The position numbers and the translations under genes were made by a program. 64,000 nucleotides of DNA from positions 7,059,902 to 7,123,901 of the forward strand of contig MU053652.1 of assembly GCA_013239625.1 (NCBI GenBank), written 5' to 3'. Of this stretch, positions 8,488-54,441 are shown piece after piece. This stretch comes from Lama guanicoe. Taxonomy: Eukaryota. The notes below the pieces were generated by a model, which was not told where the DNA came from, made no database searches, and was given only the letters and a program-made list of their open reading frames with translations. The stretch's first letter is position 1; every line of letters starts with the position of its first letter.

Positions 8488-9144
8488 GATTTATTAACTA
8501 CCCACAAAGCAAACCAATATAAAGCATTTAGATTTGGTTCTTATAAAACCCCAAATGTGTATTCCTTAAAGTAAATGGACAATTTTCTGATCAAAACTCA
8601 TTAAACATGTTATCTATTAAATTATGTTTAATTTAATATTTGCTATTTCAAGTGATCTGGGATATTTTATTTCTTGACTTTACATAAACACAACCTTCAA
8701 TTGTGTCTGCTGAAACATATTAAGTGCTTTCTGTTTAAATCCATTGAGATAGAATTCATGCAACAAATAAGACCAAAAAAACCCACAAATCAAATCCTGC
8801 AAATGGCCATAAAATGGTACACGGTTGAAAAAGGATACCTGGGAAATCTATTCGAATCTTTCTTATACACTATCTATTTAACAGTAAACTTCTCACTGAC
8901 ATCTTTTAAAAGCCTGAGAGGTAATATAATGAACGACTATGGAGAAAATCAGCAGAAACTATTCCTTAAAACTGGACATGATGACTAAGGATTCTGTTGT
9001 AAAACTGGCCCACAATGTTAACAGTGAATGATGTAGACTGCATAGGTCTATAGGCTGACCAAATCAGCATGATTCCTCTCACTGTATGTAAATATAACTG
9101 CTTATTTTATTGGGCTCTTCAGTCCTGCTAGCTCACTATTTTGT

Positions 9145-9159
9145 GGTTGCTAAGCAACC
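9145..9159. promoter_or_regulatory. Palindromic RFX X-box motif
   Basis: GGTTGCT-A-AGCAACC is a perfect 7+7 inverted repeat matching the RFX X-box, in apparently unique sequence. Confidence 0.5.
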
Positions 9160-12100
9160 TTGGTAATATTACAACAGGCGCACTTAAAAAAAAAAAAAAC
9201 AGGGGGACCAAAAAGTGTCTGTTGATTTATTTATTTGAATGGAGACGATCCAGGTCCAAAATAAAATCTTTTTAATGTGACAGCTGGCACTAACTGGGTA
9301 ACAACCTGCAACTTCACTGTAATCACAGTGAAACAATTTTTTTCTCTGAAAAGGTAAACAGACTTCTGGATACTGCCTTACCCCAAATGTATGTTTGTTT
9401 AATCATTTTTAGTGAGGATTGCTTTTGAATATTTGAAGACAGATTTTGGCCTTGGAAGTTCATGCGGAAAAGTGTATGGGTATGTGTCCAGGGCCAGGAC
9501 GTTTGTAGGACAATATGAAGTATGAATTATTGCAACTGTAGTACCCAGTGAGCAAACTAACCCATCAAGCTATATAAGTTGTCACAAAATGTACTGAAGC
9601 ATTCCATTCCACTCAGGTGAGAGAGAACGAAGGGCAGTAAGGAATCTGAGTCATAAAATCCTTGCTGCCTCAGGGCAATGGTAACTTATTTCACTATATT
9701 TATAGGTCACTAATGGTAACTGATCCAAAAGAAATGGTGGCATCGAATTGTCCTTGGCCTTGTGTCAAAAAGAAAGAAATCATCTATGAATATAGTCAAG
9801 GACCAAAAAAAAAAAAAAATCCACAATTAGTAACAACTCTAACAGCATCAATACAGGAATAATAGTAATGTGTAATTTATTCAGTCTTTCTTCAATGCTT
9901 TCAATGGAATTATTCAAATTCTAGTACATGCAGAGAATATTTATTTCATAGAGAGAAAGTACACTAGCATACTATTCAAACTTACAAGGGACTAAAATTG
10001 CTATGTTCACTTTTGACTGTTGGTAGTGAACAGAATAATACAATGAATCATCCCATTTCTCCCCCTATTTCTCCTTTCCAGGTTAGGTGGCTTTGTCAGG
10101 TGAAGTTGAGATTTTGGAAAATAGTTTCAGCTCTTTTCTGTACTCTTTATCTCAGAGCAGCACAAATACATTTTCCCAGTTCTTAATTTTTATTCTTTCA
10201 TTCTGTTTCTGAGCTGCTCTTTTCCGTGATAACTTACGTCAAAGAAAATTTAGCATTATTTTGTGATACTGCTCATGACTGCCATTTACTTGATATGTGA
10301 CCAGAGTTGATACCATTCCAGATCATTTTTTACTTGTTTTGCCAAGGTAATAACATTCATTAAATAATACAGAATCTTTGTTTCAGGGAAGAATGGACAT
10401 GAAACTTGTTAAAACCCAAGTTTTTTGTTGTTGTTGTTTTTTAATAGTAAGCACTGCAGGAAAGCAATACAATGACATGGTGTAACAATTTTATTTCTAA
10501 AAGATAAACTACAATTCCACTCATTTGTTATTCTGCTGAAGTACTTTTAAATGATGTTTTACCCAGGCAGAATTTCTGCTGAGAATCCTCAGACATGTGT
10601 GTACTATAAAGCAGTCACACATTTCTTGTTTTCATAACCTTTCTGGCTAAGCGCTTTTAATCAAGCCTGTATCATCTGTTCTCTATTCTATATTGTTAAT
10701 TGTCACAAACAAGGTATAGCACTCTGACCCATTGATTCAGGGTTTAGAAATTCATATGGAAACTCTGAGAAAATTTAGTGTGACAGAATTCAATGAATTT
10801 CAGTTTTATACAATGCATATTTAAAAGTATACTTATGACTAAGTTTATGTCTGAGAACAAGTAGCCTGTCTGAAAACTGAATTAGCTAATTCCTTGAATA
10901 TGTTGAACTGCCAAGTTTGATCACATATTAACACAAATCATTTTTAAACTGTTGAACTTTATTTAAATCAATGTCTGCAATATATTAATTGACCACTTTG
11001 TTTAATATATTAGCTGAGTTCCTATAAAGTTAAATTCAAATCAAATTTCAATAAATTTTATTACCTTAAACATAATAGGAAAATAAGCTACTGAAGGCAT
11101 GACATTCTTAATGTTATATAAAGTAAATAATCGTTTCTCCCTTTTTCTTTTTATTTTGTGACCTATTTCTCCTTGAAAGATGTAGCTTGTATTGTAAAAA
11201 TGTACTTGGAACTTTATTAAGCAAACTATGTAATAAACTTAAATCCAAGCTTAGAAACAAATATACACATTATCTACTAAAAAATAAACAGTTAAATTAG
11301 ACTCCTCCACCCCAAAAGTCTATTGAGTTTTATTTAGACTTAAGCCATGCAGCTTCAAACCATGTTTATGATATACAGACAGAAGATACTTCACCTGACT
11401 CAAGAGTGTCTGGCCTCGCATTCACAAGGCAGTAAACATTTTTACGGCATAAGACTATTTAACCTGAATGGCACCCACACATGGGCTTCCTGAGTTGCAC
11501 TTACACAGATCTCCTTCTTCTGGAAAGCCTCCCTTGAGAGGCCTACCTGAAATACCAGATCAACTAGACCATGAAGATCTAGCCTAGTAAATAATCCAAC
11601 AGTCTGAAAATGTTCAGGTCTGAGTTAAAACAAATACTTTCTTTTCTTACTTACAAGACGCATTAGCACCTATCTAGGTATTACTTCAAGCTTTTAAACA
11701 TAGATCAATCCACATTTTGTGTTTCTGTCCATAAACGAAAGGGGAAAAAAAAGAAATAGCAGATAAAATGAGATTACCACATACTTAGGATGCCAATTAT
11801 TCTGAAATAAAGCATTTTATGGCTGAAAAATTACTAATAGTCAAATATTTAAAATATATATGCTTGCACCTAAATATGTGAAAAATAGCATATCTGTAAT
11901 GTGATAATCATTTAATCATGGCTGGTGTTAACCTCATCACATCTGAAGAGAATCTAAATTTACAAGTTCTTAAACTTGTCATTTCTCAACTTTATAAATA
12001 AGATTCACTGAAAGATAAAAATTATCATAAAAATAATCTTTGGTTTAGGGAAAGAATCCTTAACAAAAAGCTAAATCAAATTCAACTCTCTCCTGAACAC

Positions 12101-20039: not shown

Positions 20040-20510
20040 ATGATATCCTTACGCTTCTGACACGAGGCAAGTGGACTTTTCTGCCTATTCTCCCTTCTTT
20101 AGAACATCTCGAGCATTGGGAGAGTGGACGCAGAGGATGAAATGTAAATTCTGCCTTACTGATTCAACTGTAAACAGCATTCTCTGGACAGGTTTCAGTT
20201 TGCATATCCCCTGCTTCTAGGACTGCAGGGAATGATCACCCTGCGAGGGAAAGTCAAGTCTCCCATGATGAGTAATAATCTCACATATAACAGACCAAAA
20301 GTAATCATCACCAAGGCAGCGCCTGCATTGGTATAGCACTCCCTGAACATCTGGCCGGTTCAGAACTGACTCAAGAGATAGTCCTATTGCTGAACTACTT
20401 CCTAAAATAGCTATTCCACGGAAGGCGTTCCTCAGAGACATCCCCAAGTACTGACCCAGTCTGCTCCTGCTTAGCTTAGCCTGACAGGTTCAGTATTTCA
20501 GTTGCATTGC
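20040..20510 (-). mobile_element. Putative AmnSINE1 (5S rRNA-derived ancient SINE)
   Basis: The minus strand has a 5S internal-promoter-like head aagctaagcaggagcagactgggtcagtacttgg (20444-20477), then tgagtcagttctgaacc (20357-20373) and gcaggcgctgccttggtgatga. These follow the order of the recalled AmnSINE1 consensus. The 3' boundary is uncertain. Confidence 0.7.
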
Positions 20511-20959
20511 CTTAGCTGGAAGAAAACACGACTTGCTTTCTCTTAACGTATTAGGAGTATGGAAGTAGACTCTTGTCACCCCTTCTTCTCAGCAGTTCAA
20601 GATGAAGTTATTCTTTCAACAAGTTAGTGTTGACTAGTTGGCCTTTGTCAGGTTTTAGCTGCCAATCATAAAAGGAAAACTCTCCAAATGGATATTTGTT
20701 CTCTCTCATGCCTTATTAGGTAATGGAGTCAATGTTCTTGTTTCTGTTTAACTGTCCAGGCCATGCATATAAAGCCTTAATTACTTTGTGGCTAATTCTT
20801 TCCGGAAATGTCCTTCTCATCTCCCTTCCTTATGATCCTCTATCATAACCCAGACTCACTCCCTTACATCTTATGTCTAACCATGCAACACCCAACATCC
20901 CAGCCCCTCAGCTGCTTTGTTTCCTTAATTCTGAAGAAAAACATATTATGTAAACAAAA

Positions 20960-21399: not shown

Positions 21400-22330
21400 C
21401 AAATTAAAGCAAAAGGACGTTTTAAAGTATAGTATCCTCAACTAATTTTAAAAGTCATGATTGAAGAAAAATTATATCCAAGAAATATAGCTGCGTTACA
21501 GTTAAGGAAATCTTAGAGAAATTAGGGGAAAAGAAAGATGGGAAATAGAATGGCAAATGGATCAGTTTAGGACCTGCAATATCTGAATAAGCATAGTTCC
21601 AGAAAAAGGGAATAGGAAAAAATAAGAGAAGGATATTATTAACAATTCCAAAAAGATTTTAGAAGGATATATGAAAGATATGAGATTCCTGATTAGAAAA
21701 CTCACCAAGTACCCAGTAAAAGAGATAAAAAAAAGATTCATGGCAAAGTACATTGTTATGAGAGTTCACGAGAAGTGCCAGTGGATTCTTCCAACAGCCA
21801 CGCTAGTAGCAAGACAATGGAGCAGGCTTCCAATTATTTAAAGAAAATAATTTTAAATTTTAAAATTCTATGCTGAACTATGCTATAAAAAAAAGATTCA
21901 TGGCAAAGTACATTGTTATGAGAGTTCAAGAGAGAAGTGCCAGTGGATTCTTCCAACAGCCACGCTAGAAGCAAGACAATGGAGCAGGCTTCCAATTATT
22001 TAAAGAAAATAATTTTAAATTTTAAAATTCTATGCTGAACTATGCTCTCAATCTAGTGTCAGGGGAGACTATGTAAAATTTTAATCGTGTATTTCTCATG
22101 TTTTCAGAAGATTTACTTTCCTTGTGCTTAGGAAGTTCTTCATGGATATGTTTTAGTGAAATGAAAAAGTAAACCAAGAAAAGATCCAGAGCATGAGGGA
22201 TGTCACATGGGAGAGAAGGAAACAAAATCTCAGGATGAGATAGGAAGGATTCAAGGACATAACCTGAAATTTAAAACATATTTAGAATAAATTATAATTC
22301 TGGAAAAGAGTTCAGAGACAATTAAGTGAC
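21400..22330 (+). mobile_element. Old L1/HAL1 ORF1 remnant
   Basis: ORF1-like motifs (ctgaataagcatagttccagaa; ctcaccaagtacccagt; gcaagacaatggagc). Confidence 0.6.
21725..22046. repeat. Two-copy tandem duplication (160 bp + 162 bp)
   Basis: Copy 1 is 21725-21884 and copy 2 is 21885-22046. They differ only at gttcacgagaag/gttcaagagagaag and ctagtagc/ctagaagc. Confidence 0.97.
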
Positions 22331-29016: not shown

Positions 29017-32000
29017 TTATAATATCCCCAAATTCTTAATATTTCCTGAAATTCTTACGAAAGCTTAATGTATGAGACATGAAATTGAAAAGGATTGAAT
29101 AAAAAGGCATGAGGGGACTTAAGGGAAGTTGGAAATGAGATGAATAGTTCCCAATTTGTGGAGTGTTTTAATTTATTCCACTTTTCAGTTGGTGAAAAAC
29201 AATCTGGAATAGAGTCCTTCATTTTATTTCAATTTATTGAAAAGGAAAAGAAGGAAAATCAAACGTATTTATTTTTCTCTACCTTAAGCCTAGATGTTTG
29301 TGTTAAAGTCTGATTCTTCCATCATGTTTAGAGTTCATGCTGTTCTATTTAGATGTTCAATTTACTACTATTACTAATACCAAGAGCCCAAATAATAATC
29401 TAGTATTTCTGACATTTGTGAACATTTGTGGCATATAATAAATACTCAATAAATATTATTAGTATTATTGTTCAGCCCTAAACACCTGCACTTTCAGTAA
29501 TTTTTTGATGGTAAGTCAGTATTTTTCTTTTTCTTAGACTTTCTCATTTTTATTTATTTTCATATGCTTTAACTGAAAAGTTGGAGATTTATTCCAAAAG
29601 ATTTGAGCACGGTAAAATAAACGATCACATACTAAAACTGAAATATCATTGCAGCAGGGCAAATGAATTCATTTGGAAGTATTTTTTCATCTTCTGGGTT
29701 ATCATAAAATTATCAGGGAACTTAAGTTCTCCTAATGAAAATATATTTAAAAGCAAATTTCCTGATGAATCAGCTATCCGAATACATAACCAACATGTAG
29801 ATGCCCAGGGGTCTTGCTCCTTTTTGAGCTCAGGAATCATTTAATGGGGCAGCTCCCTTGCTTGAAAAGTTTCTTGCATTTTCTAATTCATAATCACAGT
29901 AAATTATCTGCTTACATTCTCCACAGAAATTTATATTGCGTATTTCAGGGGCATTGGCTATAGCTGTTGTAATATTTTTTAAGATTTCAAGAGACCACTA
30001 CAGTGAGTCAAATTTTCTTAACAACTTCTGACAAGCATCAAATTCATTTAGACTGAGGAGTTAGTCACCTTGAAAATTTCAGTTCAGCTTAATCTATGGC
30101 CAAGCACATCACCAATTTTACTCAATTTGTTCTCTTGAAAGTAGGGTTGAGGAGTTTACCTTATTTAAAGTATCTACTGGTAACAAGATATATTTTTGTT
30201 CCTCTTGTGTTGGTTTGGGTCTGTTAAAGTCATTTCATAGGACTGGCTGAAATTTTCACTTCTGCCAGTCTGTTTAGGCATTATATACAGGCAGGATTTA
30301 TGTGATTTCAGATTATCTGAATGTTAATTACAAACCCAAGAAACCTTCTACTTCGAAGTTAACCAAAGATTTCAGATTCCTCCATCTTTCTAAAATCAGA
30401 AGACTTTAAAATATAAATATTTTTCTTCTTCTAATCTAATAAAAAATAAAAGTTCTGAGAAATTCTTACTCTGCAGCATGTAATCTTTGCTAACATTAAA
30501 GAAATAGTTAAAAATCAAGAGTTTTGTAAGATTATTTCATTAACACTAAAAGATAGTTATACCAGTATATACAGACATACGGGCACAGTGTAAAGAGTTA
30601 TGAAAAATTCCAGATGATTGCAGCTCCTTGAAACTTCTGGAAATACAGAGCTCATGGATGGTATAATTACATATTTGTTGCACATATTGAGGAATACTAG
30701 CACTTTTTTTTATAGTCTTTCAAACTCAAAGGGATTTATCTAGGACAAACAAATGAACATATTACTTCATGCCATACAACTTCTGTGGATAACATGGAGG
30801 GAAAACATTTCTTCATACATAACATCCCTTGGTATTATTTCTTCCCTTCCTTTCAGGTGATGATGTCACTAACTGACAAAGTTTCAAGTAAGTGTGTCAA
30901 TTTGTATGTGCATATATACAGCTTTGTTAATTCTTAAATTATTGTGAGTACTTAAATATAGTGACATCGAACACTTAAAAATTATCCTTAATATTTCATG
31001 AATTCAGCTTGGATTATCTCCATTTAACACAATTATTCCATTCAACTGCCTTGAAAGTTCAAACGCCCTAGCATTTTAACTCATGGACTGACTCAGTATT
31101 GCCTTTAGACCTGGACAAGTGGGGCCTCTGTCCTAGGCCCTTCCATTCAGAGGATTCACACCACCAAGAGCTTTCCTTAAAATCTTCTATGTCACCCTTC
31201 TGTATCTGGGATACAGCCAGCAATGCCATCTGGATATAGTCCCCTAGGCCAGACTGGTACCCACATGATCCATAGTGCCCGTTTCTCAACTTGGGGCATT
31301 CTCTGATCCAGTATGTGGGCTCAACCAGATGTCCCTAGGAACTCTAGGATTCACTTAATCTACATAGACTTCCCTGGTCTCCATGGTTGAGCTCCAGGGC
31401 TTAAAAGACAGGCTAGTAACAGGATAGTTCCAGATGCTCAGAAAGGTATTTCTTCTGCAGGATCTCATAAGATTGAGCTACCGTAATGATGCAGACACAC
31501 TGACTTAGGTAACTTTCACTCGCATTGGACACAGGGTGAGTTCAGAGTTCTGGGCTTCTGATGAACTACCACTGGCCCTTGGTGATATGAGTTGCATGTG
31601 TGGACCCCTCTACTGTACAGCACACAACGTGTCAAGGGTGGTGGCAGGTGACTTTTATGTGCCCTTGCTACTGACACCCAGGGAGGCCACCACTCCCCCT
31701 TAGCAGGCTCTGTGCACCTGACAGGCATTATCTTCAAAGAAAGCTTTAGAGATTCTTGCTCACAACACCTATCTTTCTGAGTGGCCTTCATTTTTTCTGA
31801 TCAGTGTGGTAATGTTATGATCTCTTGGGTCAGTCTTAAGCTTTGCCAGACAGGAATGGAAATGCCCTTGAAATAGTGGTACTACTCTTGCTCTGTCCAT
31901 GGATCTCTTGCCTAGCCTACTCACAGGAGGCAGTATTTGGAAGGCAGAGGTACAGTTAACATTGAAAGATCACTTTCTAGAAATGCAGCAAATGCAATGA

Positions 32001-37017: not shown

Positions 37018-37195
37018 GGAAGGAAGGTATAGCTCAGTGGTAGAACGCTGTGCTTAGCATACATAAGGTCCTGGGTTCAATCCCCAGCACAACTGTCAAA
37101 AAAACAACCCCCCAAAATAAATAAATAAACTTAATTACCTCACCCCCCCAAAACAAAAAAACAACAAAAAGACTTAAAAGTAAAAATAGTTTTAA
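37018..37195 (+). mobile_element. tRNA-derived SINE (camelid type)
   Basis: A-box tagctcagtgg (37030-37040), B-box ggttcaatcc (37074-37083), body aataaacttaattacctcaccccccc, A-rich tail and near-TSD aaaagtatatttc (37003-37015) / aaaggtatatttc (37196-37208). Confidence 0.9.
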
Positions 37196-52682: not shown

Positions 52683-53317
52683 TGAGACAGGAGGGAAGGG
52701 GGCAGGGCACAGCCACTCAAGGAATGACAGCAATTTAACACCAAAATGGCAGAAGATTCACCTCCTAGTTGGCCTTGAGGATTAAGAGGTTTGACTTCTA
52801 GTAGACCTTGAGCTTCATTATATGCTCATTGTAACAGTGTGGTAAATAACATGCCCGCAGGCACCATAACAGCCCCAAGGCTAACCGCAAAAGGCCAAAG
52901 AATGGGCGATGGTCCAATTGCTGGTAATCTCAGCCCCTTCCCCAGGGCAGTTGGAATGGTCCCACATGTAGGCCTGTGAAGCTACAGAGCCTATAAAAAC
53001 TGACAACACCACACCTAGCGGCCCTTTTTCGCTCCCTCCCTTCAGAAACGGCCTGTACTCTGTCTGTGGAGTGTGTACCTACTTTTACTTTGACCTGAGC
53101 GCCCAATTCCTACACGTCTTTCCTTGCCTTTCTCTTGCCTTACACTCTGTGCAGTATGTATCTCTCTAAACAAATCTACCCTTACTCAGCAGTGGCTCAC
53201 ACTTGAATTCTCTCCCCTGCCCGAAGCAAAGGACCCACACCTGGCAGGGCACATCCCAGGGGCTCAACCGAGACCTGGGATACAGCCCTCCTCAAGCTCC
53301 ACATCCGTTTTCCTTCA
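52683..53317 (+). mobile_element. ERV1-class solo LTR (635 bp)
   Basis: TG...CA termini, 4-bp TSD tcat (52679-52682 and 53318-53321) and TATA-like ctataaaa at about 52991. Confidence 0.85.
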
Positions 53318-53650
53318 TCATTACTTCAGGAGTATAGAAGTGTACCATATTTCTGAAGTTAATTTGCAATATGAACCAAAAGTTCTTTTTAATGTACACA
53401 TCCTCAGATAATAGCCAAATGTGTGAGAAACATGTAAAAAAATAAAATTAAAAAATTTCAGTTTGGTTTGTGTTATACATGGGGAGTCTTTGGAAACAAT
53501 CTAGACATCTTAAGATAGAGGATTATTTATAGTAAAGACAGTGCTCTTACATGATAGTAAGATGCTATTGACAGAATGATGTTCACAATTTATTGTTCAA
53601 AAAAATACAATGAAAATAAAATGAACAAAGCAGTAGGTACTTTATGATCC

Positions 53651-54441
53651 TGATACTGAGCAGGACCCTGTGGGGTCCTCCTTGGTACAAATCTTTCCAT
53701 GTTCCCTATTTCTTGTTTGTAGAAAATAGGCTTCATCCAGCCTCTTTGATCTTCCCTGAGTTCCTAAGGGCAGATTCAAACAGTTGCTAATTAGGGAAGG
53801 AAGGGACTGCAGAAACAAGGGAGGAACAATCAAGAAACAATACTGCAGCCTTGGGGCAGGGTCCAGGTTACCAAGGCTGTTGCCCTCAAGATCACACACC
53901 TGCCCTTCCCTTGAATTGGAACCAGTTACTCTTATCTAAGTCTCAGGATGCAAAGAGAAGAAACAAGAACTGGTTTGAACCTTTGAAGCCCAAGATGACA
54001 GAGGATTTGACTTCCAGTGGACCTTCAGCCTCATTCTGTGGTCACTGTAATGTATTAACATGCTAAGTGACACATCCCCAGCACCATGGCAGTTGAGGAT
54101 TGCCATGATAACAATCGGAAACGCCCACATATAAGAACAGAAAATAAAGGCGATTGGCTCCAGCACACTCAGAAAGAAGACTTGATGGCAGAGCCTCCCA
54201 TATGAGTCCATGTGGGCCTGAGCAACAGCGGAGCTGTCTCTGCTGGCCCTCTTGGCTGACAGCGCCCCATTCGAGTGCTTCCTTTCCCTGCTCAAGAGCT
54301 TTCCTGACTTGTCTTCTTTTGAGAAATAAAGCAGCTTTTGCTCTGTCACTCTGCCTCAGCTGTGAATTCTTTCCATCTGGCAGGCAAGAACCCATGTTTG
54401 TGGGATCCCCACTTTAAGGGAGAGTCTTCCATCTGCTAACA
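53651..54441 (+). mobile_element. ERV1-class solo LTR (791 bp)
   Basis: TG...CA termini, 4-bp TSD atcc (53647-53650 and 54442-54445), TATA-like atataa at about 54129 and aataaa at about 54325. Confidence 0.88.

Follow-up and report, generated by a model that had tools for sequence, protein, structure and literature searches.

A probable AmnSINE1 copy in repeat-rich, non-coding DNA

The window, by which we mean the whole 64-kb stretch of DNA that was analysed, consists of AT-rich non-coding sequence with a GC content of 31–41% per 2-kb bin. It is rich in repeats and includes stretches that appear L1-like and LTR-like, which suggest mammalian DNA. A Pfam scan of nine of the 22 long open reading frames returned no match, and a crude splice-site scan of the window yielded 11 candidates and no convincing exon; no target gene can therefore be named for the element described below. 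The top candidate of that scan, a putative 31-nt exon at 30857–30887 (+), is accompanied by a pyrimidine tract, an AG and a GTAAGT and has one open frame; it may be due to chance.

On the minus strand, positions 20040 to 20515 very probably hold a copy of AmnSINE1 (SINE3/5S class, DeuSINE superfamily), one more member of a mobile-element family already known in mammals (Table 1). AmnSINE1 elements are laid out as a head, a tRNA-derived part, a Deu domain and a tail (PMC3234267; PMC4824008), and the family is listed as '5S-Deu-L2' in the S3 Table of PMC5065162. The window copy follows the printed human/chicken consensus in the order of its parts, from the 5S head through a non-5S body and the remains of the central domain to the 3′ terminus, with near-equal spacing. 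It differs from that consensus in being heavily decayed, with the C box lost, net changes of −53 and −19 nt in its centre and a tail whose middle can hardly be aligned. On this alignment it is a decayed, near full-length copy that goes back to a single old insertion. It is the only AmnSINE1 copy in the 64-kb window, and no later insertion interrupts it, although the window is repeat-rich. No word of at least 5 nt that could represent a target-site duplication is common to its two end regions. The family assignment made in the original prediction is upheld, with head, body and terminus in consensus order, and the 3′ coordinate it gave, 20040, coincides with the terminus of the element.

Table 1. 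Positions of the putative AmnSINE1 copy, its parts and the motif words within it.
Feature	Position in window	Strand	Remarks
Whole AmnSINE1 copy (probable)	20040–20515	-	~476 bp against a printed consensus of 576 nt; both ends kept, internal deletions; body aligned by eye
5S rRNA-derived head	20408–20515	-	5S positions ~3–105 in pairwise alignment; alignment ends weak
A box, intermediate element and first 3 nt of C box	20444–20476	-	28/33 against a fetched 5S gene
Decayed C box	20429–20446	-	6/18 against 5S; offsets of 1–3 nt give no improvement
Non-5S block	20357–20394	-	Consensus 131–171; 31/37 aligned columns, 3 gaps, by eye; holds the 16/17 motif
AP-1 word TGACTCA	20367–20373	.	Family consensus 155–161; inherited
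Ungapped block	20305–20344	-	Consensus 191–230; 25/40, with transitions as 10/15 mismatches, by eye
Central (Deu) domain remains	20165–20304	-	Consensus ~231–448; Deu limits approximate, by eye
Octamer-like word GTTTGCAT	20198–20205	+	Canonical octamer minus one change; absent from the consensus at this place; local change
Forkhead word TGTAAACA	20169–20176	+	On consensus 434–448 (12/14 by eye); arose by local change
3′ tail	20040–20153	-	Middle poorly alignable; terminus 20056–20040 = consensus 554–569, 14/16, one inserted base, by eye

The 5S-derived head

Scans of metagenomes and genomes with a 5S-box pattern retrieved seven loci; Rfam recognises 5S genes in six of them, and five genes were used to build a profile. 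The seventh locus (L005) has a 5S-like block that draws no Rfam call, and viral contigs scanned with the same pattern gave 0 matches. Positions 50–82 of one fetched gene (L001; Rfam RF00001 at 114.8 bits) align without gaps to window positions 20476–20444, 28 of the 33 being identical, so that the 5S-like promoter block earlier reported on the minus strand is indeed present. In the 5S register, the A box matches at 12/15 positions, the intermediate element at 5/6, the next spacer at 7/7 and the C box at 6/18. The intermediate element and the C box are the sites of TFIIIA (PMC3123226).

The five-gene profile has a sole included match in the 64 kb, at 20500–20444 (-), with an E value of 5.1e-6, and the head scores 60.5 in pairwise comparison with 5S against a background maximum of 34 (788 tiles). 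There is some circularity in this support, since the block in the window itself served as the model for the pattern that retrieved the 5S genes; the parts of 5S that lie beyond the fetch pattern score weakly and are equalled by 314/3446 and 197/3446 background tiles. Neither the element nor the complete 64 kb gave any match in Rfam, and the head has therefore decayed too far to be recognised by the general 5S model. The sense strand carries T4 runs at 20407 and 20300, and such runs stop RNA polymerase III. The decayed C box and these two runs together make transcription as a SINE unlikely, and the copy looks dead as a SINE.

Body, central domain and 3′ terminus

The remainder of the element was compared with the human and chicken AmnSINE1 consensus of PMC2315648 (Additional file 1; 576 nt by hand count). 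The alignment was made by eye and the counts for its blocks are hand counts. Seventeen anchors are colinear by eye from consensus position 34 to 557; of the 16 intervals that separate them, 13 are within 9 nt of the consensus length, and the remaining three deviate by +10, −53 and −19. The claim that non-5S motifs follow in AmnSINE1 order is borne out by these anchors and, for one body motif, by a tool search as well. This 17-nt non-5S consensus motif occurs with 16/17 matches at 20373–20357, has just one further match in the window (3 mismatches), and is found 0.16 times in shuffles at up to 3 mismatches. It lies 71 nt after the head, compared with 75 in the consensus, and the rough corrected chance of such a match is ~8e-5. 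Consensus 46–79 is matched at 28/34 positions by eye, and for the 25/40 block the corrected P is 0.003, with P 0.009 for its excess of transitions.

The Deu domain spans 330 bp in vertebrates (PMC4824008). In the window copy it is recognisable, by eye only, as remains that flank the net 53-nt loss, so the domain is not intact. On balance, ~53 nt are gone between consensus positions 275 and 367, and another ~19 nt between 401 and 434. Consensus 367–563 is represented by four exact 7-mers in order (rough chance 0.004). The 3′ terminus has a rough corrected chance of 3e-4 and lies 91 nt from the preceding anchor, against 83 in the consensus; consensus 481–553 is hardly alignable. Overall, the 5′ half is ~70% identical to the consensus, as counted by hand with liberal gaps, and the 3′ half is weaker. 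The two best-kept blocks fit uniform decay at 62–74% identity, with a corrected P of at least 0.095 once the number of blocks is allowed for.

Two other identities were weighed against AmnSINE1. The sequence might be no more than a 5S rRNA pseudogene, or a short piece of 5S with unrelated DNA after it. In its favour, the one match to a full reference that was scored by a program falls on the 5S part, the body has no match in any of the seven fetched loci, and past one motif the body alignment was done by eye. The likeness to 5S genes and pseudogenes (RF00001) lies in the A box and intermediate element, yet the window head falls below any Rfam threshold and is followed by ~370 nt of SINE body. 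The non-5S motif stands at near-consensus spacing, the ungapped block has its excess of transitions, the 3′ terminus matches, and TG or CA lies exactly where the consensus has CpG. Confinement of the similarity to the 5S head, the outcome that the original prediction had named as fatal to itself, was not what we found: the body and the 3′ end match the consensus too. We consider a pseudogene extremely unlikely; the colinear body, as aligned by eye, excludes one in which nothing but 5S rRNA sequence is recognisable.

A different 5S-headed relative from the DeuSINE superfamily, such as the Repbase entry 'DeuSINE', or a SINE module that forms part of a DNA transposon in the manner of MER6, is also very unlikely, if slightly less so. 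Repbase does hold two human SINE3/5S entries, AmnSINE1_HS and DeuSINE (PMC5753468); the window was compared with the AmnSINE1 consensus alone, and the middle of its tail aligns poorly. Against a relative, head, body and terminus all occur in AmnSINE1 consensus order. The SINE part of MER6 itself is a V-SINE domain, and its reported hosts are primates, bats and eulipotyphlans (PMC6887750). A MER6-like MITE was rejected since the element is not flanked by convincing terminal inverted repeats, with the proviso that such repeats, if old and decayed, might escape notice. The inverted-repeat pairs in its neighbourhood are short or just 73–87% identical and none lies at its ends; the best bracketing pair, 26 nt at 73%, sits 400 and 150 nt off the two ends.

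CpG content and motif words

The element is richer in CpG than its flanks, as had been noted: its 471 bp contain 9 CpGs, and the two 1-kb flanks 3 and 6. The window mean is 2.3, and a count of 9 is reached by 2/133 non-overlapping and 8/1252 sliding tiles. Part of this excess follows from the higher GC content of the element (46%, compared with 35%); the observed/expected CpG ratio is 0.36, compared with 0.16 over the window. Once base composition is taken into account, the excess is modest, with P values of 0.02, 0.07 and 0.17 at background ratios of 0.163, 0.20 and 0.25, respectively. The element does not qualify as a CpG island, and neither a promoter nor a CpG island was found near it. Eight consensus CpGs fall in alignable blocks; by eye, six have become TG or CA, one is otherwise changed and one is kept, at 20052. 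This pattern supports homology to AmnSINE1 and indicates ordinary methylation decay. The present CpGs at 20320, 20356 and 20426, which lie in aligned blocks, fall outside the consensus CpG sites. As the present CpGs would thus be mostly not ancestral, their number is a weak clue to exaptation.

The AP-1 word, the forkhead word TGTAAACA and the octamer-like word GTTTGCAT all stand exactly where they had been placed. The first belongs to the family consensus, so its presence needs no selection; this inherited word may still be bound by its factor. All three words occur together in 0/1252 other sliding tiles, a count to be read with the trio having been picked post hoc. The stretch aligned to consensus 284–448 has no TAAT/ATTA homeobox core, the three in the element being located at 20273–20305. 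As pointers to an enhancer role, the three motif words appear to be weak evidence.

Decayed relic or exapted enhancer

We favour the interpretation that the AmnSINE1 copy is an inert or weakly constrained relic, with a probability of about 0.52. A master copy would have been transcribed by RNA polymerase III from an internal 5S-type promoter, and an L2-type LINE would have reverse-transcribed the RNA from its 3′ tail to its head to give a full-length insert; for these two steps we draw on knowledge of the family. Once inserted, the copy would have suffered the decay of its C box and gained the two T4 runs, both visible in its sequence. About 70 nt of the central domain would have been lost, and most ancestral CpGs would have turned into TG or CA, as in methylated DNA, judging from an alignment made partly by eye. 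The relic reading is preferred because the C box retains 6/18 positions, the T4 runs are present, seven of the eight alignable CpGs are lost and the block identities fit uniform decay. It is further favoured by the loss of homeobox cores from the Deu stretch and by the lack of a promoter, CpG island or convincing exon nearby. Counting against it would be the high family prior, the ~70% identity of the 5′ half, CpG and GC contents above the local background, and the absence of any later interruption.

The same copy may instead have been exapted as a distal enhancer kept by purifying selection, to which we assign somewhat less than even odds. In such an element AP-1 would open the site and the forkhead and POU-like words would add tissue choice, with a target gene beyond the window or unrecognised within it. 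The family lends weight to this proposal. In human, 626 AmnSINE1 copies overlap with a conserved element (PMC5065162). Enhancer states and fetal H3K27ac are over-represented in the family (PMC6904449), and so is RELA binding, both in human and in cow (PMC12212084). The accessible parts of PMC5065162, PMC8143547, PMC12212084, PMC6904449 and bioRxiv 10.1101/2024.03.11.584453 give no total human copy number; the prior for a detectable copy being conserved is therefore our own estimate, somewhat below one half. A family so rich in conserved and enhancer-marked copies makes the window copy a reasonable candidate for a list of regulatory elements. Within the copy itself, both ends survive across 476 bp, no stretch outside the 5S part is better kept than the AP-1 block (16/17), the motif trio recurs in none of the other tiles and the CpG ratio exceeds that of the window. 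Most of these points have a counterpart: the trio was chosen post hoc, the AP-1 word is ancestral and expected without selection, the ancestral CpGs are mostly decayed and the unevenness of block preservation is not significant. In addition, it is mainly the Deu domain that harbours the homeobox and POU sites common to conserved copies (PMC3234267), and the stretch that carries them is the most deleted part of the window copy (~70 nt lost).

Three exapted copies of the same family offer a comparison: AS021 (Satb2), AS071 (Fgf8) and AS3_9 (wnt5a). The last is 71.4% identical to the consensus (PMC5065162), close to the ~70% of the window copy's 5′ half, the latter counted by hand with liberal gaps. 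They are partial copies (257–570, 204 bp and 391–501, respectively) for which conservation and transgenic activity have been shown (PMC3234267; PMC3427154; PMC5065162). The window copy is unlike them in that it extends from the head to the tail and has its best-preserved part in the 5′ half. A constrained regulatory element working through this 5′ half, by way of the 5S A box and intermediate element and the AP-1 block, and able to do without the deleted Deu core, is an unlikely variant. Were it true, such an element would differ from the two proven enhancers that have 3′-half consensus coordinates (257–570 and 391–501), and it would test whether a remnant of a 5S-type promoter can act as an enhancer or boundary. 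The window copy would be of interest only if constraint in orthologues concentrates on the 5S head and AP-1 block and not on the Deu domain. As things stand it carries little weight, with hundreds of human AmnSINE1 copies already catalogued, and repeat masking would probably label it.

Other features of the window and of the fetched loci

Several further features were noted along the window. A tRNA-derived simple SINE lies at 37021–37150 (+), with A and B boxes at 37030–37084, and presumably resembles the camelid vic-1; on the strength of this resemblance, the host is probably a camelid. In SINEBase, vic-1 is entered as a simple SINE found in camels (PMC3531059). A recent tandem duplication with a 162-bp unit, 97% identical, occupies 21725–22046. 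In a repeat-poor stretch at ~9050–9400, a palindromic word at 9146–9158, which we take to be an RFX X-box-like motif, marks a candidate regulatory element independent of the AmnSINE1 copy. Two adjoining stretches at ~52690–53330 and 53650–54440, richer in GC and CpG, appear LTR-like; the former is the sole region that matches the AmnSINE1 copy in CpG count.

Among the loci fetched with the 5S-box pattern, L006 and L007 are vertebrate-type 5S genes with spacers on short contigs of two bacterial genome records, and probably represent contamination with animal DNA. The locus without an Rfam call, L005, read on the minus strand at ~270–620, has, after its 5S-like box, a body that is not 5S and then a SINE/LINE-like tail; this body is unlike that of the window copy and possibly belongs to a 5S-headed SINE of fish. 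Finally, two coelacanth AmnSINE1 rows in Additional file 1 of PMC2315648 align poorly and, by eye, seem to contain a reversed 5S-box stretch in mid-alignment, so the coelacanth claim may be based on a reversed 5S-like match.
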